In this document: piece after piece, positions 27,143 to 57,082 of the stretch | How positions within the stretch are numbered: position 1 is the stretch's first letter | Layout of the letters: each line of letters starts with the position of its first letter | Assembly: GCA_044892525.1 (NCBI GenBank) | Contig: CM097887.1 | Coordinates: forward strand, 93,846,397-93,910,396 | Direction: 5' to 3' | DNA: 64,000 nt | Origin: Schmidtea polychroa | Lineage: Eukaryota | Position numbers and translations under genes: made by a program | Notes under the pieces: model-generated | The model's database searches: none | Told to the model about the DNA's origin: nothing | Seen by the model: the letters and a program-made list of their open reading frames with translations, nothing else

Positions 27143-27895
27143 CTATTGTTTCTCCCATTCAGCGTCGGCGAATAATTCGTCGAGGTTAAAAAACTCGGAA
27201 GCGTTCTCTTCCCACGTTACGCCAGCGGCTGATATGATTCGTGCTGAGGGTCCCGTTGTTAGGTCGATGGACACGTGAGAGTTACCACCGTTGGTTGAAT
27301 CCTCTATTGATGGGATGTTTGGCTTTGTAGTGGCGCGTTCGCGCTGTCTCTTCTTGCGCTCTGCACGAGAGAGTTGTTTGCGCTTGGGTTTGCTTGAAGA
27401 TGCCACTTGCAGAGGGGTGACTGATACAGATGGACTAGCAGTGGGGGGCTTACTGGTACCCGTGACGACAACATCTGGTCGCTTGGGGGACAATTCGTTT
27501 TCGACGCAGTCTTGGCACGGTCTCTTGAACGGTGGAGATGGATTCGAGGAAAGGTTGTGATGAGGCGGAAAGATGTCATCGGCCTCTCGGATGGGAATCT
27601 GCACTATTTTTCGGGTTGTAGCCGCCTGCACGTAAACCTTATGCAGTGCCTCGGATTGTTCTCTGATTAGACTTCTTTGGGCACGGCTCTCAGATATTAG
27701 CGCGTCCCGGCAATGCTCGCTACGATCGAGCTTCTTTTGGATCTCCTTCATCCGAGCGGGACTAAACCATGTCCCTTCCAGCTCGTCGATTTTTCGTTTA
27801 TATCGACCGATCTGGGCTTGAAGATCTTTAATCACTGCATTTTTATCTGAGCAGGAGAAGCAGGGACGTAGAGCTGATTTGTTGTTTGGTAACAT
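27143..27895 (-). CDS. LTR-encoded 250-aa protein (3' LTR copy), putative nuclear regulator
   Basis: Coiled coil, PCQDC, KPKRKQLSRAERKKRQRER basic patch, acidic aromatic tail; conserved in the sister LTR. Confidence 0.75.
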   Translation of the reverse strand: MLPNNKSALRPCFSCSDKNAVIKDLQAQIGRYKRKIDELEGTWFSPARMKEIQKKLDRSEHCRDALISESRAQRSLIREQSEALHKVYVQAATTRKIVQIPIREADDIFPPHHNLSSNPSPPFKRPCQDCVENELSPKRPDVVVTGTSKPPTASPSVSVTPLQVASSSKPKRKQLSRAERKKRQRERATTKPNIPSIEDSTNGGNSHVSIDLTTGPSARIISAAGVTWEENASEFFNLDELFADAEWEKQ

Positions 27896-30350
27896 AATGG
27901 ATGGCTAAAGAAGAAAACTATGGTGACTATATCTAAAAATTTCGGATCAGATATACGGTTTATCCGCTATTGGATACTTAGTGCTGGAAGAAAACAAGAC
28001 GAGTCGACGAAACAGGATCCCTCCCTTCACCCTTGATTACTAATATTTTACGTATCCTTTACAGAAAATTATTCCCCAACGCCCTGATTGCTTCCCTGAC
28101 GAATGCAAATTATTTGTAAAAATTTTAATTTTCGTCTATCGCGTTCGAGTTGGATTTCTATCTATCGCACATAAAGGCAATTTACGGATTTATTCATGCC
28201 GGAGCGAATAAACCTATTTCATTACAAATACACTATACTACACTTCGTTTAAATTTCGCTGATTATTTGTTGTTATTCTAATGCAAAATAAGGTTTTTGG
28301 ACCAGATGCAACTAGTAAAAACTTGCACCCTTACCTCAAGTAGCGGAATAAGTAATAACTCGTAATTTCGTATAAACTATACGTCACTATTTTATGATTA
28401 CCCCTTATCCATACCATACGGTGATATCGTCGTAGAAATATAGCATCGTAAAAATATTGTAATTACATAATAATTTGTTATCGGATTTAGTTTTCTATTA
28501 CAATACGTCATTTACAGGGAATATGAGAAATTTAACTACAATATTACTAGCTATTTTATAACCCAAAAATTCCTGTAGATGCTTTAGTTAATTTAAATTT
28601 GGCTCAAAGGCTACTACTATTATTTGTAACATCTAATTAGAATTACGATAAACCTCTACAACACTTAGGTGAAACTTCCTATGGTTTAGTTATAAAGTTT
28701 GGTTTGAATTTTCGGTTATTAATTAAAATACCCCTTCAACAATTTCGATTTTTATTTAGAATATTTAATTTAAGCAAAATTATCTTTAATGAGTGCACTT
28801 TAGAGAGTCTCTTATCTTAGTAGTCGGTTACTGGTTATTTTGGCTTATCTTTTTAGTGGTACGAATGACCTTCATCAGTAGTGAAATTTAAGAGTCAGTC
28901 ATCTGGAAGTCACATCTCATGTCAGCATTATCTAATATGACCACTGATTACTACTCACACACTAAGAATCCTAGAGAGGGTGACACATGGCGGCATTCCC
29001 TGCGGTGAGAGGCACTCGGAATGATTCTGCTGTTTCTCATGCATATTTCTGACCGGATGACGCTACTCATAGTTATGTTAGCAGTATGTCTGTATGTATG
29101 GGTGCCTGTTCGATGGAAATTTTATCGGTAACTATCAACCGTACTGAGCGAACTGCAAATGTTACATCGCGTGTCGATTCCCATCTGAGCTTATGATGTT
29201 GGATTTATTTACTACGACTCGTAATTTCCTCAATATTGGATGTTTTTGAACGATGGGAGATCTCTACGAACCAGCCAACTAGACTCTATGAAGCATATTT
29301 CAGTAGTGGATATTTCGACGCAACAGCATGAAAATTATTCAATGGGTATTACCAGATTTTGTTAATATATGTGATTGAATACAGTATTATTGTGGTTTTA
29401 TGTTTTACTTTTCCTTTATTGTAAATTCCTCATCATATGCTAAGATTTGGATGTCGCATCTGAAAGAGATGACCTAAATTAGATTTACTTTTTCAAAAAT
29501 CTACCGAATGCAATTTCAACTTCTCGATATGTTAGAAAAACCAGCGATGGATGTTTAATGGTATTTTCCCCCACATGGTAAGTTCGGATTTATAGACAGA
29601 AGTGGCATGAATGTCTTATAAGACGACTCTGGACAATACAGAGTTAATATGAGAACTCCCTCAGTCGCTGTGAAGCACATATCCTATTTTCGAAAATTTC
29701 ATAAGGTTTCCTTTCGGTCTATATTTCGGTACTCCGACAGATTTTAAGTCCTTCAGCAATTGGACCCGTGAAGAAGCCTTCACATTTCGGCCCAATCTAG
29801 CTGCGTGATTGAAATACTCCATGTCCACCGGCTGAGCTCCCGAAGGCACCTCGCACCATGACATGGAGTATCTCAACGCCACGTTTCTCGTTAATATTAG
29901 AAATCATAAAACTATCACTTCAAAATAAATATCCATAAAAGTTATGTAAGAGTTCACCTGTTACCAATAAATACTTTTAAACATTTAAATTATTTACTTT
30001 ATCAAAATCGTTATTCAGGATCAAATGAAAAGAGAGTCTGGTTAAATTTAAAAGTTTAATTGCTCATTAAATATACATATTTACTATTAACTTCGAAAAA
30101 CAATATCATAAATAAAAATCCCTTACTATGGAATTAGGCTGAATCGGAAAATTAACGTTAGTCGTTCCAAATTAGTCTGATGATGGTTCGTCGAATGTCG
30201 ATTGCTGTGACTGATTTCGAATTGCTGTGAAGTTTTTCGAATTAACTGTTGCTCTACTTGTATTGCTGATCCTTGAAATAAGTCTCCGTGAGTTGTAGAT
30301 GTCTATGAAATGCTCGGGGTTAACAGTAAAAACAGTAAACATTTTTTCTT

Positions 30351-30434
30351 ACCTATGAAATGCTCGGGGTTAACAGTAAATTTAATGTTTTTGGTAGTTG
30401 TATATATATCAAATTCTTATTTGTGCGGACCAAT
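30351..30434 (-). promoter_or_regulatory. LTR promoter module: CCAAT box, TATA-like run, then splice donor AG/GTAAG (copies at 56662-56745 and solo LTR 25324-25458)
   Basis: GCGGACCAATCAGA-TTGAGTACCGC conserved between diverged LTR families; TATATAA in the solo LTR; donor ~50 nt downstream of the TATA in both. Confidence 0.65.
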
Positions 30435-30996
30435 CAGAGTTGAGTACCGCTTATTTCTATTAATTTAATATAATTTTCTTGTTTTTAGGTTGTTTTCTCC
30501 TTATTTTCTTTATTTTTAATATGTTTTTCTATTTATTTCCTTAATTTCCTTATTATTTCTTGAATTCCTCTTTATTTATTTGTCAACTTGTTCTATTTTA
30601 ATCTTTTCTTAATTTTATTTTTTGTTTTAATTCTTATGTCTTACTTATTATTTTCCTTATATCTTATTCTATTTTATTTCTGATTTTATTTGTTTTATTA
30701 TTATTTTTCTTAATGTTCTACTTCCCTACTTTCCTATTTTTCAACGATTAAATTTTCGACTCAGCCCAACAAATCACTCGGGGACCCATCAAAATTGCGT
30801 CCCGCAATTGCATAATTAACTTAATTCATTCATTCAAAAAAAATATAACACGAACACGGAAAATTATACAACAATGATAAAAATTTTATTGTAAGATCAA
30901 GGTCAAAGCAAGACCAAGCAAGTATCACTTAAGGTGATAGTTTGTACATACAATAAAAGTTTCCACATATAACAACACAAATGTTTGAATTAGAGT

Positions 30997-31638
30997 TTAT
31001 GAACTGTTAACCATTGATGCTTCTGCTGGCGGCTGTTGGTTGGTTTGGGTATTGATGTTGAGATAGGTCTGACTATTAGATTTCGGCTGGATTGGTTGAT
31101 TACTCGGGGTTCGAGGTCGGTTAAGATTTGTCAGGGGCACTTCTTGAGGATTTTGGTTCGAGGTTACTCTTATTGATGTCGAGACTCTACATCTATTTCG
31201 AACTTCGTAAATTTTCATGAATATTGGTAGACATAGGAGGAGGGTTTCTGCGATCACCACATATATGAGATAATGGGTGTCATTGATTTCGGGAGGTATT
31301 TTTGGCTTTTCTACCAGATTTCCAAAATTCTCTTGTTGCATTTGTTGTTCCAACTGGTCGAATTGTTGAATTTGTTCGAGGATTTGTTTGTTTATCATTT
31401 TACAAATGGGATTCTTTTTACACATTGTTTGGATGTTGTTGATGTGTGATCGGGTTGATTGAATGGTTTGGATGATATGGGTTTTTACGGTCATCGGGTA
31501 TGTGCATTGACTGGATTCTTGTTTAGGTTCTTGATTTTGATTTCGGTAATCTCGTACGATTTTCGGTTGGGCGTCTATTTGTTTGCTCTCCATCAGAATC
31601 ATCAATACCATCATTGTTATCATCATCTCGCCTCGCAT
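30997..31638 (-). CDS. Accessory type I membrane protein (signal peptide, helical ectodomain, TM, tail)
   Basis: MMITMMVLMILM signal, TM YLIYVVIAETLLLCLPIFM; likely start MRGEM after an acceptor. Confidence 0.7.
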   Translation of the reverse strand: MRGEMMITMMVLMILMESKQIDAQPKIVRDYRNQNQEPKQESSQCTYPMTVKTHIIQTIQSTRSHINNIQTMCKKNPICKMINKQILEQIQQFDQLEQQMQQENFGNLVEKPKIPPEINDTHYLIYVVIAETLLLCLPIFMKIYEVRNRCRVSTSIRVTSNQNPQEVPLTNLNRPRTPSNQPIQPKSNSQTYLNINTQTNQQPPAEASMVNSS

Positions 31639-31693
31639 GATACTATTATACATTCATTATGTTTATTTACAATTGGTTTTAATGACCCTTAAT

Positions 31694-32392
31694 TTAATGG
31701 TTCTGATTTGGATTATTTTCGCCGATTCTCATCAAGGTGGACTCTGCTTTAATTACCCTGTGTCTTAACTCGGGCAGCATTTCCAATTGTCGGTCTTTTT
31801 CACGGGCTTCTCTCTTTAGATGTCTAATTTCTTTTTCCAAGCGTCTAATTTCTTCCCTTTTCTTTTCAAGGTTTCTTTTTAGCTCGATTTGTAGGAGATC
31901 TTGTTCGTTTTCTTGCAGGTAATTTTGTTGTTGATGTTTTCTTTCTATTTCTCTATATTTGCGGACCCACTTCCTCATTTCTTTACTTTCCCGTTGGTTT
32001 TCTTCTAGTTGTCGTTTTAATTTATTTATAGCTGTTTGGCGCTCCTTCGCCTCAGTTTTCCAGTAGTCTTGGATTACCTCCTTTGCTTTGAAGCTTGCCC
32101 TTTCTTTCCATAGTTCTTCCGCTATCTTTTCCCAGTTTTTCCCTCGCTTCCTTTGTTCGTGTAGCCATTCATTTTCCTCTTCCGTTTCTCTTTTTATTTC
32201 CCCCAACGCTTCGCACTCTTTCTTTAACACCTTTATCATTTTCCGGTCCTCCAGGTATTTGTTTATTAATCTCCCGTTTTCGTATTTCTCTTCCCGTAAC
32301 TCGGCCTTTAGCGTTTGGGTTTCTGTTGTTTCTGCCTCAATCTCTCCCTCTTCTACGTCGCTCATAATTTCTATCATTTCCTCGATTTTCAT
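31694..32392 (-). CDS. Accessory coiled-coil protein (likely start MKIEEM)
   Basis: Long E/K/R heptad-rich ORF with element-like codon usage; acceptor 2 nt before the ATG. Confidence 0.7.
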   Translation of the reverse strand: MKIEEMIEIMSDVEEGEIEAETTETQTLKAELREEKYENGRLINKYLEDRKMIKVLKKECEALGEIKRETEEENEWLHEQRKRGKNWEKIAEELWKERASFKAKEVIQDYWKTEAKERQTAINKLKRQLEENQRESKEMRKWVRKYREIERKHQQQNYLQENEQDLLQIELKRNLEKKREEIRRLEKEIRHLKREAREKDRQLEMLPELRHRVIKAESTLMRIGENNPNQNH

Positions 32393-32560
32393 ATCTATAA
32401 TATGTACAGTTAATGGTGCGCTATAGTGCGACTTATACGTATACATTGATATAAAATTTAATAGTTTGGGTTACAGTCCCTTGAATACTTTTACAATACT
32501 TTAATTTTTTTGTTTGGGATATACGTCCCGGTTTTTAGTTTTTCATCTTTTCATCCACCC

Positions 32561-33616
32561 TCATACGAAGGTTTCCTCCTGGCCTACATAACCTTCATCA
32601 CTATCGACCGCGGAATGTAACTGTATCGCAATAGGGTCGTATGGTAGGTAATATTGGGGAATTTGAGCTCTCAATTCACTAACTTCGTCTCTTAGAGCTC
32701 GAGTGATATTCAATTCCTCGTCGAGCAGATAGGTGAGATACCTTGTCTCTTCATCTTTTGCCTCTATCTGTTTGTCTAGGGCTTTGATTTTCTCGTCGCC
32801 CTTCCATTTTTCAATTTCTATTTCTAAGTTTTTAATATTTTCGGTGTACATTTTCCTTTCGTTTTCTAATTTTCTGTTTTTTCCCGCTAGGACCATGTTT
32901 CTTTGTTCCAGCGATCCTTGTAATCCATTAAGGTCTCTTTTCATCTCTTCTACCTGATTTACTAATTCCACAACCCGTCCCGCTTGTTGGGTTATCATCT
33001 CTTCCATTGCGGCATTCTCGTGCTCTCTTATGTCGCACTTCATTGCCAAATGTCGCTCAAACTCCATAGCCTTTGTTTGCCAGGTTTGGCTTCGGGCGGC
33101 GACCTTTCTCAACCTTTTCAATTCTTCCTTTATTATTAAATTCTCCTCCCATTTACCTTGTTCGCTTTCGTATCCGAGTCTCATGGGCAATTCTTTCATC
33201 TCTTTTTTCATTTCTCTGTTTTGTCTTTTCCATTTTCTCGCTTCTGCCACTAAGTGCATCATTTTCCTGTCTTCTATTTGCTTTTCCGCTTCGCGCTTGG
33301 TGTTCTCATCGGTAAGTCTCTTTCTCGCTTCCTGCACTAGCTGCTTTAAGTAGTGGCTGTGTGCTTCTTGGCGGGTATTTTCCAGTGACGCCCATTTTGA
33401 TGCTCTTTTGCATGCTTCTGCTTCCGCTCTTAAGTTGTGTATTAACCATTGGTATTGACCATTCTCATCTTCTCTAGTTTCTTCGATGTGATTTCGGGTG
33501 AGATTAGTTAGTTGGAACATTACTTTGTTCCATTTTTTGTTATGTTCTCGGGGAATTTGTGTCTTGTTGACCTTGGTTGGGTCTATCGCAGTTTCGGTTA
33601 TTTTCTCTTGTGTCAT
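32561..33616 (-). CDS. Accessory coiled-coil protein, 351 aa
   Basis: Uninterrupted heptad-rich ORF; acceptor 2 nt before the ATG. Confidence 0.72.
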   Translation of the reverse strand: MTQEKITETAIDPTKVNKTQIPREHNKKWNKVMFQLTNLTRNHIEETREDENGQYQWLIHNLRAEAEACKRASKWASLENTRQEAHSHYLKQLVQEARKRLTDENTKREAEKQIEDRKMMHLVAEARKWKRQNREMKKEMKELPMRLGYESEQGKWEENLIIKEELKRLRKVAARSQTWQTKAMEFERHLAMKCDIREHENAAMEEMITQQAGRVVELVNQVEEMKRDLNGLQGSLEQRNMVLAGKNRKLENERKMYTENIKNLEIEIEKWKGDEKIKALDKQIEAKDEETRYLTYLLDEELNITRALRDEVSELRAQIPQYYLPYDPIAIQLHSAVDSDEGYVGQEETFV

Positions 33617-33809: not shown

Positions 33810-35198
33810 TTACTCCGTTCTACCCTTCTCCTCTTTCCTCACGGTCATCTTGATATATATGGTATCATTTCTCGCCATATCTTCTACTCTTTGTTGTGAG
33901 ATGAACGTAGGTGCTCCTGTTGCTGATCCTTCTTCGTTGAGGGGCCTCTGGTAAGCTATTTGATTCCCCGTTGTTTTGAAGCTTTGCTCATGTATACTTT
34001 GGTTGCTCATCAGAGTAATATCGATTTTTGCCTGGAACGGCCATTCTAATATTTCGTCGTATTCTCCTTTACATAACAGAAAGAAAATCGAAAAGTGCGT
34101 ATCCAATCCGGTTCCGTCCCCGTTGGGATATATCTTCATTTTCATTTTGTACCCATTTTTCCAAGAATGGAATGTAGGACTTGTTATTCTTGTCTCTTCT
34201 CCGGTTTTTGCTTTTCGTATTCTTTCTTTTACTCCCGTTATTTTCCATATGTAGGGTGCTGTTGGGGTTATCTCATTTAGATTTATTTCCCGTATTTTCT
34301 GATGTAGCTCCTTGGCCTGATTATTACTAATTTCTGTTCGGTTTATTTGCATCTTTATGTTTGTTCGGGCTTCTTCGAACGCTTCCCTTTCTTCTAGTAG
34401 TTCTTTGACTAACACTTTCAACGATGTTATCTCTATCTCCATTTGTTTTACTTTCTCTTCGCTTTCTTGTAACGCAGTCGACCACATTTCTGCGTGAGTT
34501 GAAGCATTTTCTACTAAATGATGTGGTAACTCACCTCGGTGTAGTAGTTTCTGACAACCCCATCTACCTAGTACACATGTCATTCTTTTCTTTTCGCATT
34601 CCCTTAGATGCTGTGCCACCTTCATTATTTCCCCTTGGTTACATCCGTTTGGGCATTCCCCACTGAACTCCGCACATACTCTCTCCTCTTGGACATTGTG
34701 ATGTTTGAGGGTGAGATTTATCCTCGTATCTATTTCTCCACAGTGTTCACATCTTTCGAATCTCTCTTCACACTGCCTTTGATGCTCTTTTTCTTCGCTT
34801 GCTCGAATGGTTTTATGGCACCTTTCACACTGGCCAATTCTGTACATACATTCTCCCATATGTTGTACTACCTTCCATATTACTCCTTTCCATTCGCATG
34901 GGGCATTTTTGCATCCCAGGTTGGTGTTTAACATGTCTTTCACTGCGGCTTTATCCTCGTTAGTGTCTTCTAAACTCGATATTAGTGTCTCTTTACACAC
35001 CGGGCACCTCTGTGGTCTATTCTTTATTGCTTCACTGATACATTCTTTACATACTCTGCATCCACATTGCGTTTGGTGAGGTTCCTTTAACAACTTTTCA
35101 CATATTCCGCACATAACATGTTTGTGTATTCTGATCGTTGTAGATTTTCGGACTTGCTCGACAATCTCTCTGAACTCTTCTCTTTGTCGTTTATCCAT
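33810..35198 (-). CDS. TRAF-family protein (RING, TRAF zinc fingers, coiled coil, MATH), intronless
   Basis: CGICEKLLKEPHQTQCGCRVCKEC...CPVC; CKNAPCEWKG; CPNGC; MATH YIWKI...GYKM...YPNGDGTG...HFSIFF...GEYDEILEWPF. Confidence 0.93.
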   Translation of the reverse strand: MDKRQREEFREIVEQVRKSTTIRIHKHVMCGICEKLLKEPHQTQCGCRVCKECISEAIKNRPQRCPVCKETLISSLEDTNEDKAAVKDMLNTNLGCKNAPCEWKGVIWKVVQHMGECMYRIGQCERCHKTIRASEEKEHQRQCEERFERCEHCGEIDTRINLTLKHHNVQEERVCAEFSGECPNGCNQGEIMKVAQHLRECEKKRMTCVLGRWGCQKLLHRGELPHHLVENASTHAEMWSTALQESEEKVKQMEIEITSLKVLVKELLEEREAFEEARTNIKMQINRTEISNNQAKELHQKIREINLNEITPTAPYIWKITGVKERIRKAKTGEETRITSPTFHSWKNGYKMKMKIYPNGDGTGLDTHFSIFFLLCKGEYDEILEWPFQAKIDITLMSNQSIHEQSFKTTGNQIAYQRPLNEEGSATGAPTFISQQRVEDMARNDTIYIKMTVRKEEKGRTE

Positions 35199-35283: not shown

Positions 35284-35643
35284 TTAGGGTTCGGAAGAGT
35301 CGGCTTCGTGTCCGCTCTCCTCTCTATTCATTAGCCATTCCGACCAGTCTTCTATTTCTGTCTGTTCTGCTTCCTCCCTCATTCGGTCTATTTCAATTTC
35401 CTGCCGACGGCTATATTGGGTTATCCTCTCTATCTCTCTTTGCATTTGTTCTATTTTTAACCTCTGGTCTTCAATTATCTTCAAATAACTAAATCCTCTG
35501 TTCATACTCTCGATCAGGTTTCTGTGCATCGTCAGTCCTTGTTCTTGCAAATTGGACACTAATTGTGCTAATACGGCACATTGTTGCTTCCATAATTCTT
35601 CAGTTACTGTATTGTGGTTTATTTCGTTATTTCCTTGATCCAT
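35284..35643 (-). CDS. Small accessory coiled-coil protein (likely start MDQGNN)
   Basis: Heptad-rich with an acidic end; acceptor 2 nt before the ATG. Confidence 0.6.
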   Translation of the reverse strand: MDQGNNEINHNTVTEELWKQQCAVLAQLVSNLQEQGLTMHRNLIESMNRGFSYLKIIEDQRLKIEQMQREIERITQYSRRQEIEIDRMREEAEQTEIEDWSEWLMNREESGHEADSSEP

Positions 35644-35803: not shown

Positions 35804-37270
35804 CTATATACGTGAGTTTGGAGGGCGCTGAGCGTTCCAGGCCTCCACCCACTGTCCTTGTTTGATATCACTTGGTCGTTTCACTCGATGTTGGAAGTTT
35901 CTGATTCGGGTCATTTCTAGTTCTCCGCGATGTCGTTTATCCTTAATTATTTTTATTGTTCCCCCCGTTATGATTAGGAATGCCCCTGTTATTATTATCC
36001 CACTGATCCACATCATCTGCTTCACGCTTATACTCTCTGGTTTTTCCTTGTTTGTTAATGTTGATATCGCTTCTGTACTTTTCTCGTTTCCTCTTTTGCC
36101 ATTTCCTTTCATCATTTCCCGTATTCTTGCTATTTCCTCGTTCATACCCTCCTTTGCCATCTTTTGTATTTTTTCCATCTCTTCCTCCGAAACATAGTTG
36201 TCCTGAGCTTCCTCACCAGTTTTCTTGTGCTTTCCTCCTTCGTTCTTTTCGTCGTGGTTTTTTCTTTTCTTTCCTCTTTTCCCCGGGTATCGTCGGCATT
36301 CTCTTTTTGATTCATTTCTCCAGATACAAACCGTATATTCCTTCGGAGGCTGCTGCTGCGTCACATATTGATGGCATCTCTCACCCGGTCCTAATCTTGA
36401 AATACAGACTTTGTGCTCTTTTCTTGGTTGGAGCTGCGTTATTACTACTTCGCCACCTTTTCCTAGGTGTACCTCTTTTCCTTTGACGTTCGTTATTCTC
36501 TTCCCGTCTCGATTTCGGTATGCTTCTTGTATTCTTACTTCTGTTATTGGTTCTGTGGCCTCATTTATCAGTACTAGTTTCTGATACGCTCTAGACATGC
36601 ATCTTCCTAGTATGCACCTTTCCTTTAAGTCCCATTCTTCCTTTAAATCCCACTGCTGCTCTTGTGCTTGCTTTTTCTTTTCTTGCTTTAGTTCATCCTC
36701 TTTGCTATCTTGATTCTCCGCTTCTTTGGTTTCTTTTATCGTCCTCGTCCCTCCAGGAGCTGTTACTAACTCTATCATGGTAAGCATAATTATCATTAAT
36801 ATCATATTTGTCTCTATTTCTTTGTTAGTGAAAGGTAGGCATACCCTCTGTTTTCCATTATTCGGTTTTTCCTCCTCTTTGGTCTTAGTTCCCGGGCTGT
36901 TTCCCTCTCTTTTCGTATCCGAATCCTTGTTTTCCGGTTTACCCTCCTCCGGTTCTCTTTCCTCTTTATCCTCCTTTCGGCCTTTTCCGTTATTGTCATC
37001 GTGTTTATCTCCCCCGCTGTCGTTTAAAATGTCGTCCTCGACATTTATATCGTTCAATAATCTGCGATATGCTGTTAGCACTCTGTTTCTTGCTAATTTC
37101 GCTTCGAATTCAAACTCTTTTCTACCCGTTGCAGCATGTCTCTTTCTATTCCATTCTTTAACTAACTCTCTCAATTGCATACGACGATGTTTCCCAATTC
37201 GTTGTTGCTCGTTCTGATTTTGCGTGAATTTTAGGTCTTCTCTATTTAATACTATTAAAATAATTTTAGG
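35804..37270 (-). CDS. Membrane protein (ankyrin end, internal signal, FN3-like domain, TM); probable -1-frame continuation of the polyprotein
   Basis: Frame is open upstream of the ATG at 37180 and overlaps the polyprotein end; VITQLQPRKEHKVCI is FN3-like; two hydrophobic segments. Confidence 0.65.
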   Translation of the reverse strand, partial: PKIILIVLNREDLKFTQNQNEQQRIGKHRRMQLRELVKEWNRKRHAATGRKEFEFEAKLARNRVLTAYRRLLNDINVEDDILNDSGGDKHDDNNGKGRKEDKEEREPEEGKPENKDSDTKREGNSPGTKTKEEEKPNNGKQRVCLPFTNKEIETNMILMIIMLTMIELVTAPGGTRTIKETKEAENQDSKEDELKQEKKKQAQEQQWDLKEEWDLKERCILGRCMSRAYQKLVLINEATEPITEVRIQEAYRNRDGKRITNVKGKEVHLGKGGEVVITQLQPRKEHKVCISRLGPGERCHQYVTQQQPPKEYTVCIWRNESKRECRRYPGKRGKKRKNHDEKNEGGKHKKTGEEAQDNYVSEEEMEKIQKMAKEGMNEEIARIREMMKGNGKRGNEKSTEAISTLTNKEKPESISVKQMMWISGIIITGAFLIITGGTIKIIKDKRHRGELEMTRIRNFQHRVKRPSDIKQGQWVEAWNAQRPPNSRI

Positions 37271-38950
37271 CGTCCCCCCCTTAGTTGGGTATTCTTTACC
37301 ATCGCATTTTCTCCGTTTTCGTAGAATTCGTTTACATTTATCGCATATTTATTATTTTGTGGTACTCTCCAGGTTAATAATAATTTCATTGCTTCTAGAT
37401 TTTTCCGTACCGTATTCCATTGAAACTGAGATGTGTTTTTGCACATATTTTCAACTTCTTCTTTTGTCGCATTTTTGCAAATAAATCTGATCATTTCTAG
37501 GTTTGGCTGTATGGTTGCCCAGTCCAAGGTGGAATTTCCTTCATTGGACCTTTCGTCTAGTTTCGATCCTGATTGATGTAGGATGTGGAGTGTTTTTGGG
37601 TGTATTTTTGTTATAGCTGCATACATCATGGCGGTTTCGCCTTGTTCATTTTTCGTGTTGGTTTCCTCGCCCATATCTCCAAGGATTCTCACGATCGTTA
37701 TTGCTCTATTTTCTTTCGCTGCTAGTATTGCTTGTTGTAGGGGTGTTCGGGAATCCTTCGTTACCATCGTAAATGCTCGAGGCAAGAAGGTTTTGATTTT
37801 CCCGATATCTAAACCCGTGGTTTGATCTCTTGCGTATGTATGTACAGCTTTTATTATTTTTGACAATATTATTTCGTCTGACAACTCTAGCATTTCCTCA
37901 AAGAATACCTCTTTCGCTTTGCGTATTATTGCCTCCTGATCTATACTCATTGATTTGGTTTCGATGACGTTGTTTATGACCGTTTGGTTCGTTGTTGACT
38001 TTGATTCCCTGGATTTCTCATACCTTATTTTCGTTTTCTTTCCGTTTGGATTATTGATTCGTTCCTCTGCTGTAAGTATTTGGATAATATCCAGGTAATT
38101 CTCGCGGATGTTATTCATTGTGTCCATCATATATAACACACTTACCGTTTCCCAATATTTATTTCGTACTTGGTTAGTAAATTGGAATAGTGATTTTTCG
38201 AATGTGTCGATTCGCTTTTTTGTTAACTGTTCGTCTTTGTGATTTGTGAATTTTATCCCTCGTTCTAGTAATTGATTCGGGATTTCGAATAAATGATGTC
38301 CTTTCATAGCTTCTCTCATCAGCGTGTTCTCTCCTCTCGTGAACGCTTCGTTTACGTTGATCATATAATCGTTTCGAATTGGATTTCTCCATGTAATTAA
38401 TATTCCGGTAATTGTCGTCAGTTTTTCTTTGATCGCTGTTAGCAATCCATCATACATGTTTCCGACTTCCCGATTGTCCTCATATGATAGTAGTTCCATC
38501 AATGACGTGAACGCCTCGGTACTTCTCCCTCTGATAGCATGATGTAGAGCGTTTTTCCGCTCGTGGTCTTGTGTAGTTATTTTCGATCCGGTATCGAGTA
38601 ATGCGGTTATAATGTCTTTTGTTTTTCCTCTGTTTGCTGCTATCATTAATGGTGTGTAACCTTGGTTGTTTGTTTGTTCTGTTGATCGCTTGCAGTCGTG
38701 AAATGCTTCTATTGTTTCTAGTATTTGCTCGTTGTTACCTACTTTCATGAGTTTGTGTAATGGTGTGTCTCCGTAATGATCTGTTATTGTAAATAATATT
38801 GGCCATTGGCTTTTGACTACTCGCAATAATGGGTGTGTCCTTTCTCTATTTGCATAGTTCTCGATCATCGTCAATAATCCTCCTAATATTTCGAAATCTA
38901 ATCGATCTTTTGCCCATCCAGGTATTTTAATTTTTACCTCTTTTACAATC
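37255..38950 (-). other. Ankyrin-repeat region C-terminal to integrase
   Basis: GDTPLH, GYTPLMIAANRG, KNALHHA, SRTPLQQA, GETAMMYAA, GNSTLDWA. Confidence 0.88.
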
Positions 38951-41900
38951 TTTTCCGCTTCTGATGGTTGGATACCCAATCGTCCGGTGATCGGTTCTGC
39001 GAGTTGTTGCATCATGTTCATTCGGTAGGTTTGCGAACGTGTGGTTAATGTACGGCCTTCTGGTTGACTAGTGGCTGTTTTTGGAATTGATTTGCATCGT
39101 GCCACGTTTACGTATATTGGTCTGGTAAAGGGGTTATTTACCAATTTCACTCTTACATTAGTTTCGCCTACGAATAAGATCTCATATGGTCCTTTTCCGT
39201 TGCGTTGCAACTTTTTTGTGGTTCCTGGAATTAATTCCGGGGTTTCTATCATTACCCAATCACCTGTTTGGAACGTATGTTGCTTCACGTTTTTCTTTCG
39301 ATCGTGTAAATCTTTATAACTTTCCTGGTAGAACTTGATATTTAATCCCGCAGTTTCCCAAATTTCTTGCATTCTTTCCTTGAATTTCGTAACATAATCA
39401 TCGATCTCCATATACTGCGATATCGGTGGTTGGTATTCCAGGTCCATTGGCATATTACATTCTCTTCCGTACATTAATTTGAATGGGCTCATTTTCGTTG
39501 ATGCGTGAATCGACATTCTGTACGCCATAAGACATAGGTTTATATATTCATCCCAATCTCGTTGGTGACGGTCAACGTAGTTTGATAACATTTGTATAAG
39601 TGTTCCATTAAATCTTTCCGTCATCCCATTGGTTTGAGGGTGGTATGGAGATGTTCTTAGTTTTGCTATTTTGAAGTAATTTGTTACTTCGCTCATTATC
39701 TCACTCATAAAATTAGTTCCCTGATCGGTTAAGATTTGTTTTGGTGTTCCATATCGGCAACATATCTCTTCTACCAAAATTTTTGCGATTGTTTTAGCTT
39801 TTTGGTCTGGCATCGCGAATGCTTCTGGGAATTTCGTAAGAAAGTCTGTGATCACTAGAATGTAAACGTTTCCTTTATCTGACTCTGGTAGTGGACCAAC
39901 TACGTCCATGGATATCATTGTCATTGGTTCTATTGGTACTGGCATTGGTGTTAAAGGTGCTTTCCATTTCGATCCAGTATTCTTCCTGGTTGCACAAGTT
40001 AGACAATTTTTTACCCATTCAGTTACATCTTCAGTTAACGTAGGCCAAAAATATTTCTGTTTCATTCTTGCTAACGTCTTTTTCGATGACATATGTCCTC
40101 CCAATCTCCCATCGTGATATTGCGTTAGTAACTCTTTTCGTCGGTTTTCCGGTATACACATTAATCGTTTTTCCCCATCCATTATCAGCAACCAATCTTT
40201 CTCTATAATATATCGGTGTCGGTGTTTATCCATATGTTCTTTTAATTTTTGGTCTTTCGCATATACCTCTGTCTTTCCGGTTTTTACATAATCGATAATT
40301 TGTTTTAATTCCGCGTCCTCTTGTTGGTCCTTTCGTAATTGACAGAAATCCAAATCTTCCGCTACTATTAAGCATATGCGTTGCATTTCTGAATCCACCA
40401 AATCTGGGAAAATAAATCTTGACATACAATCGGCGTTGGCATTTGCTCTTCCCGCTTTGAATTTTATAAATGGGGAGTATTCTTGCAATTGCATGGCCCA
40501 TCGCATCAGTCTACTGGACGCTTCTTTATGTTGCCCTAACCACACTAATGGTTGATGATCCGTGGTTATGCATATCTCATGTCCCCATAGTAAATATCGG
40601 AAGTGTTTGATAGCTTGTATTATAGCCAATGCTTCTCGTTCTGTTACCGAATAGTTCTTTTCGTGCTTTTTGAATGTTCGACTGTAATACCCGATTACTC
40701 TCTCTTTTCCCTCATCGTCTAATTGTCCCAAAATCGCGCCTGCCGCGTACCCGCTTGCATCCGTTGCCAATAGAAATGGCTTCTTAAAATCTGGGTGTAC
40801 GAGGATAGGTGCTTCGATTAGCTTATCTCTCAGCGTTTCGAACGCCTGTTGTTGTTCTTTTTCCCAAATGAACGAAATATCCTTCTTTACTAATTCCTGG
40901 ATTGGTTTTGCAATTCCTGCATAATTTTTGATAAATTTGCGATAGTATCCGCATAATCCTAGAAATTCCTGAACTTGGGTGACCGTTTTCGGTGCGGGAC
41001 ATGTTTTTATTTTCTCAATGTTCCTTGGATCTGGCTCCTTTCCTTTAGCTGACACTATGTGTCCTAAAAACGTGACTTTTTCCTTTGCCCAATCGCATTT
41101 TGATGGTTTGAGTTTGAGTTTCCACTGTCTTAATCTAATAAATACGTTTCGGATATCTTCCAGATGTTGTTCAAATGTCGCTGAATAGATTAGTAAATCA
41201 TCAATATATACCATACATTGTTTGATTCCATGGGTGACAAAGTTCATACACCGTTGAAATGATGCTGGTGCGTTGGTCAGTCCAAATGGCATTTTCCTGA
41301 ATTGATATAGATCTCGTCCCAACGTGAAAGCTGTTTTCTCTTTGTCCTCATCTTTGACTTTAATCTGCCAGTATCCACTTTTTAGATCTAAAGAAGTAAA
41401 ATATGCTGCCCCTTGCAACATCAATAACATCTCATTGATGTCCGGCAATGGATAGGTATCTCTCTTGGTCACTACGTTTAACTTCCGATAATCGATACAG
41501 AATCGTTGGGTGCCATCTTTCTTTTTTACCATGACCACTGGGAATTGCCAGGGTGAGCAACTTGGTTCGATTACTTTTGCGTCCAGCATCTTTTGTACTT
41601 CTGCTTCGGCTATTTCTTTTTGCATTTCTGCTAGCTTGTATGGTCTTAATGCAATTGGAGTTTCATCTATGAGGGGTATTGCATGTAGGGTAACATCGCA
41701 TGTACCCAAGTCTAAGTCTGAGATGGCGAATATATCTTTATATTCTACCAACAATCGGTGTAATTTTTTCTTTTCATCATTCGTCAACAACATACTATCT
41801 ATTGTCCATAATTCATCATCTTTGATCATCTCGTTGGTCACTTTCGGTAATTCTATGTCCATCATTGGGGTCAATCTTCCCAATTTTTCGTTCTCATAAA

Positions 41901-44900
41901 TGATTTTGTCTTCTTCTTCGAAATTCGTGATGTTGAGCGGTATCACTCCTTCTTGGTTTATTGTTATTATTTCTCTTGCGAGTGGTAATTCTCGTCGCTT
42001 TTCGAATGACTTGCTTGGTTCAAAGATAACTTCTCCTTCCATACCCGTATCCACTTTTATCTGACAAATCATCTGCGATTTTGCTGGTACTATTATTTTT
42101 TCTGGACATCTGATGACTGCATTCACTTTGCATATTCTACCGGTTTTGTCTTTTAAACACATGGTTGTTAAGTCAATTACGACTTCTTTTAACAATTCTG
42201 GCATCAAATCCGTTCCGATTATGCATGGTACGCTAAGTTTTGGTATTACTGCCAAATACGTTTCAATTTCGTTGTCCTGGTATCTCAATGTAGTCCACCA
42301 TCTTCCGACCACGTCCACTGTTTCTTTACTACATGCTATGATGTGAATTGTTGTTGATTCGATATCCTTCCAGTGTTTACTGGGAATTTGATTAATCGCT
42401 ATCGCCGATACATTAGCTCCTGTGTCTATCATAGCATTGGTTTCTTGACCATTGATTTGGATCATGACTGTCACTGCTGGACCTCCAGGTAGACTCATTG
42501 CTGCGATTGTTCTTACGTCATCTGCTTGATCTACACTTTTGGTACGTCGTGTTGGCATATAATGCATACCGGGTTGACTCGGTAATTGCGGATACATATT
42601 TTGGGTCATGGTCAAAGCTGCTTGTGGTCCCACGATATCCGGTGGTATATAGCTTCCATTGGCGATCCAGGTGTTTGTCTTTTCCTTTTCCCAATATGGT
42701 GCCGTTTCCATTGGTTTTTCGTTTGGGTTTCTGTTTGGATAAAGACATTTATCGTTCCCGTTATCATCGTCGTCACTATCGCTGTTAGATGATTGGCTTC
42801 TAAATCGGTCCAAGAATTTTGGCTTATTCTTTTTCAATTGTCGTCTTGTTGCTTCATCGTACATTACTTTCCGGAATCGTCTGCCTACTTCTTCGTCGGT
42901 TCCTTTAATCTTTGTTAATATTTTAATCAATCGCTTTATCCGATGAATGTCTTTTGAGTGACCATGTAATACCATGGTTTTAGCTAAAAATGGTAAGAAG
43001 CCTACTATCATTTTCCAGTTAACTTTCTTTTCCCGCTTGTATATATCGAAACAAGCTAACATTTGTGTTAGTATTACTCTGACTATCTGAATTATGAGTA
43101 TGATCCCTAATATCCCGGCCATCATTTGTCCAAAAACTAAGAATCTTCCCCACATTGCTTTCATCATGTTTGACGTAGCTTGTTGAAAATGGTCTGGCGA
43201 TAATAGCAGCTCGTAATTCGGGCCTGATTGATAGTTTGTGCCCCCAGTTATTGTTACCATATTTGACAAAATGGATTCTCGTCTGGCTGGGAAGAGTACG
43301 TTAAGTCGTGCTGTTTCTAGATCTTCTGGGGAATACATACCACCGTTTGACACGTCTATAGGTTTGAAATCCAGCTCTGTGGCGAGTTCTATTAATCCAA
43401 ATTTCTTGGGTTCCTCGGATATGGTTTTTCCCGGTAACATCATCCATTTCCCATCGGGTCTTTCATACAAAGGTCCGTATGCATTAGAACAGTTAAAGAG
43501 ATTTGGGTAGAAACCCACTGGATTCATAATTCTAGTGACTGGTTGGACGAATCGATTTTGTCCTTTATAACGAATTTCTAATTCATTTGCACATCTCTTT
43601 TCGGGTAGTATGGATTTTTCTGGCATTCGTGCATACGTCTTGGTACACTGGTATGTGTACATCACTTCTCCTACCATTCTACCAAAGTGTCCATCTGGTA
43701 ATGGGAGTGATGGCATCGTGTTATCGGGGTGCGTTATCGCAATAGCTAGCTTTGTTTTCAATATTTCTTTATTCAATGAACAATCGTTTTGTATCAGATC
43801 GTAATATACTTTTTGCAAGGTCGTTTGTCCGCGATGAAATAGAAAATCCATTTTATTATTTGCATATAAGTACAGTTTTACGTCCTCCGTTGCTATCTTT
43901 CCCACTGCTCTATCGATTATTTGTCTCGACATATAGATACCTGCGTAATTGGTTTTATATACTATACTGTCACATTTGGTGGTTTCTTTTTCTTTGATAA
44001 ATCTCATACCTAGATCTGGATCGTCTGTGATTAATGCTGTTGGTGTCTTCTGCGTTGAAAGTCTCTTTTCTCTGGGAGATGGTGGCATTGGTTTTCCATT
44101 TCGCATTCTCACTCTGTCGTTTCCATCCTCGTCGTTCTCGTTCTCATATATTTCTCCTTTTACTTCATTGAACAAAGCACTTTTTAACAGTTGGAGTCGG
44201 CATTTTTGGGTATTAGCTTCATAGATTATAGTTGATACTCCTGTCCTGCATACGTTTTCTGTAGCTCTACACGCTGGGTTGGTCTTCATTTGGTAATTAT
44301 TTGCGTCAAATTGCGCTTCGTATTCTTTTAATTCGACCGTGTAAGACTCGATCACTACAACTCCCGATATTACCTCGCCTCGGATCGTATACGTACCTCC
44401 GTTACATGACCCATCTGATGATTTTACTTTTCCGGATACGTAAACACTTTCGGTTTTAATCATTCCAGTTTGTCCGTGAATTGTCACTCCGTTATGCATT
44501 TTTAGCGCTCCGGTTCTAAATAGCTCTTTACAATCCTCTCGTTGTATTGATACGATTTCTTTATCCAGACCGGGTAGTATAAGAGTCGAATACGAATATT
44601 GTCCACAGTAATATGCGAGTACCTTTTTTGATACTACGCATTCCCTTGCTTGCGTTCTGATGAAATCTGATTCTTGATATACATGGTAAGTAACTTTTGT
44701 TCTCACGATGTCCAATTTGTTGGGTGAGGCTTGTCTGCATTCTTCTATATCTCTCAATGAGTATTTATCTCTCATTATCATATTATCACAATCGTAGATG
44801 GTGAAACCTGTTGCTCCACTTGTGCACAACATCCATATCATCATAGTCATCATTAACGAATTTATTGATGCTTTTCTGCTTGCGGGATCTTTCATCGGTA

Positions 44901-47900
44901 GTTCCCATTCTAGTTCATTTAACAGTTTTTTCAATCTAACTTGCATCGACCTTTCTTGCTCATTTTTCCGTGGCGCTTGTATCAGTCTTTTCCATCCTCC
45001 TGCACGAATAATATGTGGTTCAATAGTATTCTCTATGATTGAAACGGTCATTTCCACATGATTTGCGAACTGTTTATTTGGTATTTTCCTCGCAGCTAGT
45101 CCCATCAAATTATACATCAAATACGTGATTACCACTAGGTGATGTTCGTCATCATTTGCATTTGTCGTGAGCTGCTCAATCACTCTCTTTGTTTCGTCCC
45201 AATCCGTTTTGGTGGTTTTCGTTTTCTCTTTGATTAACTTTGGGATTATCCCCGAAATGGTGTGCCATAATTGTCTAGCTTCCGTACTGGCTACTTTCCG
45301 TTGCCACAAACGTCTAAGTTGTGGGTTTGTTATTATTAACATATCTTTTAACAATTCTCGTATCCATTTTTCTCCTCTTTCGATCGTTGGTTGGGCTTCC
45401 TTTAGATCCCATACTATTTTATCCAATTTTTCTAATCGAACTTGCCCTTGTTCTTGCTTTAATTGTTCTTTGGTTTTGAACTCAGACTTTTCTCCTTGTT
45501 TCTTAGGTCTTCCTTTTGCCCGTTTTTCCATCATCGTTCCGGCTTCTCTGGTATTTTCGTAATTCGGATTTTTTTCGTTATCCGTTCTGGGTAATGAGCT
45601 ATCGTTATTTCTTAGCCACTCATTCCATTCGTCTATTATTTTGTCGGTTTGACTTTCTGGTGTGACTTTCGTTGGTTCTCTTTGCTTCTGGAATTGTTCA
45701 TCCGTTTCGGTTTCCGTAGTATTGTCGATGATTTCTTTGATGTTCAGTTTCGTTGGTTGTTGATAACTCGTTGATGGCTGGTTATTAGTCCACATTTCGG
45801 CTCCTGTCGGCCATCTCACTAATAGCGGTGATCTTTCTCCTGGTTCATCGTCACTATCTTCCAGGATTATCTCTTCGACTTCTTCAGTTTCATTAGATTT
45901 ACTTGGTGCTTTGTTCGGACTTGGAGTACTCAAACTGCCTTTTGTTGGTTTAATAATTTTACTTTTCCTTTTTAACGGTTTCCCCAACGTTTCTGCCATT
46001 GTTAACACATTTGTCTCTTCCAATCTCATGGGTGTTATCCCGACGTCTGCATTATCGTCTAGTGATTTTCCGAACAGTTGCAGATGGAATGGAGTTTCAT
46101 ATGCTAATTTCTTTTTTAATTCTCTAATTTTTGTTGTTGGATGCACCTCTAGTTCCTCGATGCTCTTGTCCGGATACTTGATTCGGATGTGATACCTCTC
46201 CTGGGTGTCTTGTGCCCATTCCTGATTTCTCCATTTTCGAATAATTTGTTCTAGCTGTTCTGGATACCATTCATTATATTGCCGGTATTCCTCTATTGCC
46301 TTTGCCATTCCTCTCAGATTGTGGATATTCTCTGATGTTTTTAAGATGATATTAGCCAACGCTACTACCTGGCGTTTTTGATTTTTCGCTCCCATTGCTA
46401 AAATATCGCCTAATTGTTTATATCTTTCTTTCTCTTCTCGTTCTCTTGCTTCCGTCGCTTCCTCGCCGTCCATATCAGCATATTCACGCTCCTTTTTCCT
46501 CATTGCATGAATATGTCTCGCTTCATTTTCGCTTTCTGATGTGACATCCGTCTCGCTTTCGTCATCTGATGTCTGTTCCCTTGCTTCCTCTTCATATTCT
46601 GGAGGTTCCTCTTCTTCTTCCTCCGATTCACTTTCTGTCTCACCAATGTCTGTTTCTACGAAGATTCCTTTCCGGATTTCCCATTCCTTATTTTCTGCAT
46701 TCCACACTCTTTCCCATGGGGTTCGTCTGCAGGATCTGGTATTTAATTTCGTGATTTTTCCTTGTAGCTCTTTTTCTTTTAACCATTGTTGGTGGATTTC
46801 AATTATTTCTGTAGATTTCTGATATAACGTTTTCATCCGGTCTCGTATTTCTTTTTGATAGGTTACATCTCTTGTTCGAAATTCATCCATTGGTACTATC
46901 CTGATTATCTGGTGATTGTCCCACATACCCATTTCGCTTAACGAGGTGTCGTCCTCCGCTCGTAATATTATCTTATCGTACATCATGACTACATCATCCA
47001 CCATACCATCACTACTTTCGCTACGTACCTTTTCCGTTATCTCTAGGTTTATTTTTGATACCAAGTCATCCACTGTACTCTGATTGCTCATTTTTATTCG
47101 TCGTTTTTCTTCGTTCGGTAACCATATGGTTATTTCCAACCTCTGTGGCTGGGTTTCTTTTAACCTTCCATATTTGTGGATCAAATTTATGGTTCTCCAA
47201 TCACTCATTCGGAGCATTTCTGTATCTCGCAACCGGCTCATTAGTTCGTACATGGCTGGGGCTCGTCTGGTGATGAGTAAATCCCAGTTGTCTTCTACTT
47301 GTTCTTGAATTTGTTTGATCAGCTTATCCAGGTTTCGTCTCAGAGTACATTGTTTTATTTGTTCTAATTTCAATTTGATATTAAAATCATATTCTGCCTT
47401 GGCATCTTTAGCCCAGTCGTAAAGGTTGGCTGGTTGTTTTTCTTTATGCAACTTCAGTATTTGCGTTTCTCCTGGCCATATTAGTGCATCTACTAAGTGC
47501 ATATCTGGTTTGATCTGTTCTCCTTGGTATTGATACAGATATTCTTTCTTTCTCGAACTTCCCAAATGTTCTCGTATCCAATCGAAAAGTTCGTCGGTGA
47601 CTGTATTTTTTATCCACATTCTTTCAAGTCCTCTACTCGTTCCAATTTTTATTACATACCGCGTGGTATCGGCCTGCTTCATTTTTTCCATATAGTTTTT
47701 TATAATTGGTTTTTCCTCGTTTGGTATTAGATCTTTCTCGTTTCTTTCCAATTTCATCACTTTTTGCACGAATCGCCTGAATGGTATTACGTCGATGAAC
47801 TCTTGGTTCCTCACTACTACTGGGAGTATTTCGGCTACCTGTTTTATCGCTTCCTCCCTTGCTTTTCTCAACTTTATTTCGATATCTTCGTCTTCACTTT

Positions 47901-52095: not shown

Positions 52096-52581
52096 TCATT
52101 CGCCATAATAGACCATATGGGTCTCTTTTATTTCATATTTGCACATCGTGCATCTTTTTAGGTCTTTTACACACTCTTCACAGTGACTGAGGTGTCCACA
52201 CGGTAAGAATAATACGCGAATAGGACGGAGTTTGCAGGCTATACAAGTTCGTAATTGGTTAACTTTTTCCTGTATTTTTTGTTCGATTGCATCTGGTATT
52301 GTATTTAGTGAGTCTTTTAGACGCTGATAATCTAGATTTAATGTTGGGTGGTTCAATCTCTCTTGATACCACTGATATACGGTTTCGGGGTTTATTTTTC
52401 CATCTGGGCGACTTAGGCCTGTGGCTAATATCATATGATTAGGTACGACTGGTGTTTGTCCGATTGCTTGTAGTAATATCGCGTTGATTTTTTCTCTTTT
52501 ATGCGTCAGTGTTGTTAGGGAGTCGTTTTCTATATCGATAAACTTGAGCAGTTGTTGCATTTGGTTCGCGAATTCTGTCAT
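52096..52581 (-). CDS. Accessory ORF with IAP-type C-terminal RING, no BIR visible
   Basis: CIACKLRPIRVLFLPCGHLSHCEEC...CTMCKYEI; acceptor ttttccaacag 2 nt before the ATG. Confidence 0.82.
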   Translation of the reverse strand: MTEFANQMQQLLKFIDIENDSLTTLTHKREKINAILLQAIGQTPVVPNHMILATGLSRPDGKINPETVYQWYQERLNHPTLNLDYQRLKDSLNTIPDAIEQKIQEKVNQLRTCIACKLRPIRVLFLPCGHLSHCEECVKDLKRCTMCKYEIKETHMVYYGE

Positions 52582-55900: not shown

Positions 55901-57081
55901 TTATAGACAGAAGTGGCATGAATGTCTTATAAGACGACTCTGGACAATACAGAGTTAATATGAGAACTCCCTCAGTCGCTGTGAAGCACATATCCTATTT
56001 TCGAAAATTTCATAAGGTTTCCTTTCGGTCTATATTTCGGTACTCCGACAGATTTTAAGTCCTTCAGCAATTGGACCCGTGAAGAAGCCTTCACATTTCG
56101 GCCCAATCTAGCTGCGTGATTGAAATACTCCATGTCCACCGGCTGAGCTCCCGAAGGCACCTCGCACCATGACATGGAGTATCTCAACGCCACGTTTCTC
56201 GTTAATATTAGAAATCATAAAACTATCACTTCAAAATAAATATCCATAAAAGTTATGTAAGAGTTCACCTGTTACCAATAAATACTTTTAAACATTTAAA
56301 TTATTTACTTTATCAAAATCGTTATTCAGGATCAAATGAAAAGAGAGTCTGGTTAAATTTAAAAGTTTAATTGCTCATTAAATATACATATTTACTATTA
56401 ACTTCGAAAAACAATATCATAAATAAAAATCCCTTACTATGGAATTAGGCTGAATCGGAAAATTAACGTTAGTCGTTCCAAATTAGTCTGATGATGGTTC
56501 GTCGAATGTCGATTGCTGTGACTGATTTCGAATTGCTGTGAAGTTTTTCGAATTAACTGTTGCTCTACTTGTATTGCTGATCCTTGAAATAAGTCTCCGT
56601 GAGTTGTAGATGTCTATGAAATGCTCGGGGTTAACAGTAAAAACAGTAAACATTTTTTCTTACCTATGAAATGCTCGGGGTTAACAGTAAATTTAATGTT
56701 TTTGGTAGTTGTATATATATCAAATTCTTATTTGTGCGGACCAATCAGAGTTGAGTACCGCTTATTTCTATTAATTTAATATAATTTTCTTGTTTTTAGG
56801 TTGTTTTCTCCTTATTTTCTTTATTTTTAATATGTTTTTCTATTTATTTCCTTAATTTCCTTATTATTTCTTGAATTCCTCTTTATTTATTTGTCAACTT
56901 GTTCTATTTTAATCTTTTCTTAATTTTATTTTTTGTTTTAATTCTTATGTCTTACTTATTATTTTCCTTATATCTTATTCTATTTTATTTCTGATTTTAT
57001 TTGTTTTATTATTATTTTTCTTAATGTTCTACTTCCCTACTTTCCTATTTTTCAACGATTAAATTTTCGACTCAGCCCAAC

Positions 57082-57082
<1 letters not shown>
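52920..57082 (-). repeat. 5' LTR (4163 bp)
   Basis: Same termini and length as the 3' LTR; adjacent to the PBS. Confidence 0.96.
53454..54206 (-). CDS. LTR-encoded 250-aa protein (5' LTR copy)
   Basis: Translation identical to 27143-27895. Confidence 0.75.
   Translation of the reverse strand: MLPNNKSALRPCFSCSDKNAVIKDLQAQIGRYKRKIDELEGTWFSPARMKEIQKKLDRSEHCRDALISESRAQRSLIREQSEALHKVYVQAATTRKIVQIPIREADDIFPPHHNLSSNPSPPFKRPCQDCVENELSPKRPDVVVTGTSKPPTASPSVSVTPLQVASSSKPKRKQLSRAERKKRQRERATTKPNIPSIEDSTNGGNSHVSIDLTTGPSARIISAAGVTWEENASEFFNLDELFADAEWEKQ

Follow-up and report, generated by a model that had tools for sequence, protein, structure and literature searches.

A full-length planarian-type TRAF gene kept intact by purifying selection in Burro-type Ty3/Gypsy elements of Schmidtea polychroa

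The window analysed here is a stretch of 64,000 nucleotides from Schmidtea polychroa (assembly GCA_044892525.1, contig CM097887.1, positions 93,846,397 to 93,910,396). It holds a TRAF open reading frame (ORF) between two identical 4163-bp long terminal repeats (LTRs), which together delimit a 30.5-kb element on the minus strand (26609-57082). The features of this element, all on the minus strand and numbered from the first letter of the window, are as follows.

26609..30771, minus strand: 3' LTR, identical to the 5' LTR
30997..31653, minus strand: 218-aa accessory ORF under weaker constraint (pN/pS about 0.5)
31694..32446, minus strand: 250-aa accessory ORF, with a weak homologue in a second Burro family
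32561..33616, minus strand: 351-aa accessory ORF, charged, probably coiled coil, with a homologue in the second family
33810..35198, minus strand: full-length TRAF accessory ORF, 462 aa (ORF, Pfam, AlphaFold, structure matches)
33840..34253, minus strand: MATH/TRAF-C domain of the TRAF, aa 316-453
34287..34505, minus strand: coiled coil of the TRAF, predicted helix aa 232-304
34494..34913, minus strand: TRAF-type zinc-finger array, about aa 96-235, with a planarian-type insertion ahead of C175
34995..35111, minus strand: C4C4-type RING of the TRAF, aa 30-68, the fourth ligand being Cys as in host planarian TRAFs
35284..35643, minus strand: 119-aa accessory ORF, with a homologue ahead of the second Burro family's TRAF
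35804..37180, minus strand: 458-aa ORF
37255..49656, minus strand: 4133-aa polyprotein (ORF, Pfam)
52096..52581, minus strand: 161-aa RING ORF in the 5' leader, without BIR
52920..57082, minus strand: 5' LTR, 4163 bp, with TG...CA ends, next to a (TAA)n run

The TRAF ORF lies downstream of a polyprotein in which Pfam recognizes Gag, a CCHC motif, a mononegavirus-like fusion glycoprotein (env), protease, reverse transcriptase, RNase H, integrase and ankyrin repeats. A length of about 30 kb, multi-kilobase LTRs, and an env placed in frame between gag and PR-RT-RH-IN, with ankyrins thereafter, all agree with the published description of Burro (PMC6431247), and by this organization the carrier is a Burro-type, env-bearing Ty3/Gypsy LTR element. 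Set against Burro families 1 to 4 by description rather than by sequence, the family lacks the in-polyprotein MATH domain described for Burro1, and no MATH was found in the 4133-aa polyprotein. The polyprotein frame stops earlier in the window copy than in most copies, and the region of the 458-aa ORF is in one frame with the polyprotein ankyrin region in 77 of 95 other copies that hold both regions. The 161-aa leader RING ORF resembles the RING end of a BIR+RING (IAP-like) gene of the second family. Since the two LTRs are identical, this insertion must be very young; its target-site duplication is unreadable because both flanks are (TAA)n runs. Contigs assembled from presumed-RNA runs (a type that was guessed) cover parts of the TRAF and of the remaining element, and no credible splice joint shows in them.

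Several other features were observed in and around the element. Both LTRs contain a 250-aa ORF (27143-27895 and 53454-54206, minus strand) with no Pfam match, and a 74-bp tandem repeat occupies part of the 5' leader (50968-51520). Just past the 3' LTR lies an older, related LTR remnant (21849-25736), 67-84% identical to the element's LTR and with a 258-aa ORF of its own. Between this remnant and the 3' LTR, outside the element, a 108-aa ORF (26076-26402, plus strand) ends in an IAP-like RING (PF13920, E 6e-10). Farther away, a CBP/p300-like host exon with KIX and bromodomain (14351-15241, plus strand) is located about 11 kb from the insertion, and 1699-2583 holds an element whose 170-bp terminal inverted repeats are 99% complementary.

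The 462-aa frame reads from start to stop without interruption, and the original prediction that it encodes a full RING, zinc-finger, coiled-coil and MATH architecture is borne out by Pfam, solved structures, AlphaFold and Foldseek alike. Pfam places MATH at aa 316-453 (E 1e-26; PF21355 and PF22486 above cut-off) and RING at aa 29-68 (E 9e-5; one of four RING models above cut-off), while no zf-TRAF was detected at E<=0.01. Residues 22-154 match N-terminal structures of TRAF6, TRAF5 and TRAF2 that cover RING and zinc fingers (E 7e-15 to 2e-9), the Cys/His zinc ligands line up with those of other TRAFs, and the best PDB matches of the C-terminal half are TRAF2, TRAF3 and TRAF1. The AlphaFold model, computed from an alignment of 24 rows (mean pLDDT 88.9), shows a single continuous helix at aa 232-304, and its top Foldseek matches are TRAF3, TRAF2 and TRAF1. 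The protein therefore has the marks of the TRAF family: a C-terminal MATH domain, an eight-ligand RING, TRAF-type zinc fingers and, as predictions, a TRAF-N coiled coil and trimer. Modelled as three chains, aa 232-458 scored 0.75 against 0.38 for the best control, with at least 76% of contacts common to runs and pLDDT of at least 80. Among eukaryotes, the mark used is reached by 17 of 29 solved pairs (7 of 16 from animals) and by none of 30 single chains; because TRAF trimers have already been solved, the pass may reflect those known structures. The protein is thus predicted to form a homotrimer via its coiled coil and MATH domain. Its base and codon use also fit the element, as had been claimed from the A-rich codons: third-position T is 0.17, compared with 0.18 in the polyprotein and 0.30-0.44 in ten host TRAF frames, and codon usage correlates with the polyprotein at r = 0.79 as against 0.48 with pooled host TRAFs. 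A query of a large protein collection with the element TRAF returned a single match, rotifer TRAF4 at 26% identity, and a search of metagenome contigs returned none.

Within the S. polychroa genome, the gene is abundant. A protein search gave 1925 candidates, of which 92 were scored; all 92 match at 94-100%, and 91 have no stop. Since such a search favours intact genes, a second set of elements was chosen by the polyprotein ankyrin region. This yielded 150 matches, 84 with a TRAF already in the first listing and 66 without, and 60 of the 66 were examined. The TRAF is present in 54 of these extra elements (51 nearly whole, 3 partial) and absent from six, in which the alignment to the element stops before the TRAF region; the frame is open from RING to late MATH in 36 (33 by codon test), and 18 copies are broken. 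Overall, the TRAF is wholly or partly present in 138 of 144 ankyrin-picked elements and open in 116-119, and the genome holds at least 146 copies of this family's TRAF.

These copies carry a clear record of selection. In 50 usable copies of the ankyrin-picked set, pN/pS is 0.16 for shared variants and 0.40 for singletons (Fisher p 2e-9), and the shared-variant value departs from neutrality at p 6e-86 with sites treated as independent; because these counts ignore kinship among copies, the p-values are overstated, but the direction is firm. Pairwise dN/dS between the window TRAF and the 25 most diverged of 91 copies is 0.06-0.17, at dS of 0.36-1.48. Across 92 TRAF sequences, none of the 22 N-terminal Cys has a shared change, while 69 of 213 other sites do; variability is lowest in the RING (11 of 61 sites, versus 58 of 141 in MATH), whose zinc ligands are unchanged in 91-92 of the 92. 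No diversifying selection on the MATH groove was seen among element copies (variable at 7 of 19 groove sites and 51 of 122 others, p 0.8). The integrase is held more tightly (pN/pS 0.01 for shared variants), and the other accessory ORFs give 0.10-0.21 for variants in at least two copies, the 218-aa ORF aside, so that the TRAF is not exceptional within the element. It is kept intact by purifying selection in over 140 element copies, and the case on which the original prediction would founder, a TRAF in this copy only and decaying neutrally, is excluded. A neutral passenger copied along with a successful element would account for the 18 broken, 3 partial and 6 TRAF-less copies among the 60, as expected after insertion, but it is refuted by dN/dS of 0.06-0.17 over dS up to 1.5 and by the shared-variant ratio, and its probability is next to nil.

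A second Burro family carries a TRAF of its own. In a genome search for the TRAF MATH domain with Pfam, the top 150 of 1551 candidates were classed by eye from frame lengths. They fall into about 56 host-type loci, 13 matches in frames as long as a polyprotein (up to about 4790 codons), some 80 copies of a frame of 487 codons and a single copy of the window family. The 487-codon frame is a full TRAF, reached by Pfam zf-TRAF and carried by a Burro1-like family; all 88 scored matches lie at 95-100%, 12 of them with a stop. The order in this family is pol, a homologue of the 119-aa ORF, the TRAF, the BIR+RING gene, and homologues of the 351- and 250-aa ORFs. It thus has two MATH domains, one in the stand-alone TRAF and one inside the polyprotein (frame about 4790 codons), the latter consisting of MATH only, without the TRAF N-terminus. 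The polyprotein MATH was observed to retain a host-like binding loop, which is changed in both stand-alone element TRAFs, and a division of labour between the two forms is possible. Longer or fused forms, sought with the second family's TRAF, were absent from 5509 candidates, which is weak evidence, and among further, shorter env-bearing Ty3/Gypsy families (frames of about 3330 codons), a third family gave no TRAF match in five elements sampled in ten stretches.

Although the two element TRAFs are only 30% identical, they form one clade in full-length trees (support 99/95 with 36 rows and 97/95 with 20), and this clade sits within the planarian-type TRAF clade (100/99 and 98/97). Either one stays there with the other left out, forced grouping with non-planarian TRAF2/3/5 is rejected (AU p 0.007), and both share a zinc-finger insertion with planarian TRAFs. 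The phylogeny with host TRAFs thus upholds the proposed host origin: on these trees, the element TRAFs belong in the planarian-type clade, outside the conserved TRAF2A/2B group that spans the S. polychroa genome, Dugesia and Dendrocoelum. A MATH-only tree (42 rows; five non-planarian rows dropped) also joins them, more weakly, at 91/77, with the polyprotein MATH adjoining at 93/75. Of roughly 56 host frames seen, 12 went into the trees (22 into the MATH tree). Both element lineages are long branches of unusual amino-acid make-up, so that their joining may be an artefact. The shared position in a homologous accessory array provides an independent argument for one capture, and the capture was likely a single, old event. 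No host donor was found, the best host identity being 27-35%, which is not above that to vertebrate TRAFs.

The mode of capture is another matter. The original prediction took the intronless frame for the mark of a long-resident retrocopy. Selection, codon use and position in the planarian clade argue for long-resident, host-derived cargo, but in nine host TRAFs, too, one frame spans RING to MATH without a break, so an intronless frame cannot prove retroposition; no poly(A) tract was found in the 200 bases after the TRAF stop.

It had also been suggested that such elements inflate host TRAF counts. This holds for raw genomic domain counts, with about 94 of the top 150 MATH matches element-borne by eye, in three sequence types only. 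It does not hold for the host expansion itself, which has been reported in planarians (PMC6109357) and discussed in PMC7586133, and of which about 56 loci were seen among those 150 matches. When 15 host TRAF loci were compared with both Burro families, none was inside Burro DNA and three had Burro-like DNA some kilobases away; their flanks have a GC content of 0.22-0.35. No host TRAF among those sampled is nested within the element clade, and with none of the 15 loci enclosed, the host expansion is not an element artefact. Host TRAFs with two exons and variable MATH loops form large clusters on sequence C2, at about 105-124 Mb and 1-5 Mb. A stronger version, in which the planarian TRAF expansion was seeded by these elements or is explained by them, is very improbable. 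The number of element-borne MATH matches and the deep branching of element TRAFs within the planarian-type clade would suit it, but the large tandem host group has introns and its own starred clade in the MATH tree, host codon use is unlike the element's, and three element sequence types would largely be collapsed by transcriptome assemblies; the sampled tree and the flanks of the 15 loci speak against it as well. In practice, more than 200 element copies have to be masked before planarian TRAFs are counted from genomes or reads, or their expression is estimated, while the host expansion is real.

The RING deserves separate attention, as replacement of its His by Cys had been put forward as a sign of a signalling mimic or dominant negative. 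The motif is present as described (CGCRVC, aa 45-50), but it marks nothing special: Cys occupies the vertebrate His position in all 28 distinct host TRAF RINGs at the loci examined (29 matches, one gene twice), so that the change was inherited from the host lineage. Among 122 proteins compared, the motif was readable in 71, with His in 65 and Cys in six, including three planarian-type and two echinoderm proteins. C4C4 RINGs are a recognized class that includes the E2-binding RING of CNOT4 (PMC3166285). Relative to host TRAFs, the element RING is neither lost nor degraded, and across copies it is the least variable part. The receptor-binding loop, on the other hand, differs from that of conserved host TRAFs, and the groove is partly conserved and partly changed; the replaced positions are what we take to be the Pro-Asp and serine positions in TRAF2 numbering. 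With this loop, the element TRAF may not bind the partners of host TRAFs.

Taken as a whole, these data are best accommodated by a selected, planarian-type TRAF that acts as an active trimeric adaptor or ubiquitin ligase, bending stress and cell-death signalling so that element-making cells survive, a reading to which we assign a probability of about 0.5. Under this reading, a planarian TRAF would have been captured once, long ago, by a Burro-type element and would be expressed from a subgenomic RNA or an internal promoter. Its product would homotrimerise through coiled coil and MATH, its RING would have ubiquitin ligase activity, and it would cooperate with the element's IAP-like RING and ankyrin cargo. 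Against a ligase role, several vertebrate TRAF RINGs are not active ligases. Cell survival requires host planarian TRAFs (PMC7586133), and Burro cargo is rich in regulators of apoptosis and ubiquitination (PMC6431247). NF-kB, the target named originally, is doubtful, as a 2026 paper, in the part consulted, found no clear homologue in S. mediterranea (PMC13563047); the survival output would more likely pass through TBK1- or TAK1-type pathways than through canonical NF-kB. Against the survival reading, the one solved viral-TRAF precedent promotes apoptosis (PMC3352826). BURRO1 RNA is enriched in the intestine and repressed by PIWI (PMC8532177), and host TRAFs are likewise intestine-enriched (PMC7586133, PMC13563047); this overlap, which concerns the other family, is only suggestive of a role.

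The same trimer and groove could also serve a dominant-negative decoy, joining host trimers or occupying receptors and blocking signalling without ligase output. The intact coiled coil and MATH, predicted to trimerise (with the model perhaps reflecting known TRAF structures), the groove unlike the host's conserved TRAF2A/2B type, and the TBK1-dependent induction of host TRAFs upon wounding or in response to foreign DNA (PMC13563047) are all compatible with this alternative. We nevertheless consider it unlikely, given that all 28 host RINGs have Cys at the position in question, that C4C4 RINGs are a normal class (PMC3166285), that the RING and zinc ligands are the most conserved parts, and that a pure decoy would tend to shed its N-terminus, as seen in the MATH-only insert of the second family's polyprotein. 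Alternatively, the TRAF could serve the element's own cycle by ubiquitinating or trafficking Gag/Env particles, or by removing a restriction factor such as a PIWI-pathway protein. The env-like fusion protein, a MATH groove altered yet constrained, and the repression of BURRO1 by SMEDWI-2 (PMC8532177) would fit such a role, which is rather unlikely all the same: no partner is known, and the second family's BIR+RING neighbour, together with BCL2-like Burro cargo (PMC6431247), points to death control. It is tempting to extend the survival reading and to regard Burro elements as integrated env-bearing viruses in which one TRAF, taken early, was kept as an active ligase with a reshaped groove and counters a TBK1/TRAF defence alongside IAP-like cargo, its hundreds of open copies making it a dosage-level player in stem-cell-driven tissue turnover. 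This extension is speculative and probably does not hold in full. With a full TRAF kept in two families, what had been a published guess, Burro interference with apoptosis and ubiquitination, becomes a testable claim about a single gene.

The closest known systems are the Burro elements themselves. Burro1/GYPSM1 and Burro-2 to -4 are giant Ty3/Gypsy elements of Schmidtea mediterranea, and a Burro-like element exists in Dugesia tigrina (PMC6431247). Like the present element, they are about 30 kb long, with LTRs of several kilobases; a single huge polyprotein has env in frame between its gag and pol parts, ankyrin repeats are present, and the accessory ORFs bear RING/BIR and MATH_TRAF_C motifs. 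Burro1 has its MATH_TRAF_C in the polyprotein, whereas in D. tigrina the motif sits in an accessory ORF of its own (PMC6431247), so MATH_TRAF cargo in Burro, including in an accessory ORF, is already known, a precedent that the original prediction does not mention. That D. tigrina ORF is called upstream; here, the TRAF is downstream of pol, in the same place in two families. The consulted text of PMC6431247 names only a MATH_TRAF_C motif and contains no selection analysis or phylogeny of the MATH cargo, whereas a whole RING-zinc finger-coiled coil-MATH protein is described here. In searches of the literature for Burro with TRAF, or for a host TRAF captured by a retrotransposon, only PMC6431247 was relevant, although Grohme 2018 and Jurka 2007 may show more. 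New here are a copy census free of the bias towards intact genes, the data on selection and on the zinc ligands, the presence of the C4C4 state across the host TRAFs examined, and the synteny and tree covering both families.

The TRAFs of planarian hosts (Smed-TRAF-2A/B, Dugesia japonica TRAF2A and Dendrocoelum TRAF) have the same architecture as the element TRAF, with a C4C4 RING and an insertion in the third zinc finger, and fall in one clade with it; several host genes also have an uninterrupted coding frame. The element TRAF differs in being only about 30% identical to them, in its A/G-rich codon use, in a compact C-x2-C last RING pair and in its changed receptor-binding loop. A more distant parallel, drawn by description rather than by sequence, is ORF111L of the fish megalocytivirus ISKNV (PMC3352826), a viral TRAF that likewise represents a host TRAF within a parasitic genome, used on host death signalling; its carrier is a large DNA virus, and it binds TRADD and promotes apoptosis through caspase-8. 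Selective retention of whole host signalling genes, as practised by large DNA viruses, is rare among LTR retroelements; in two Burro families, a full TRAF has been retained across deep divergence.
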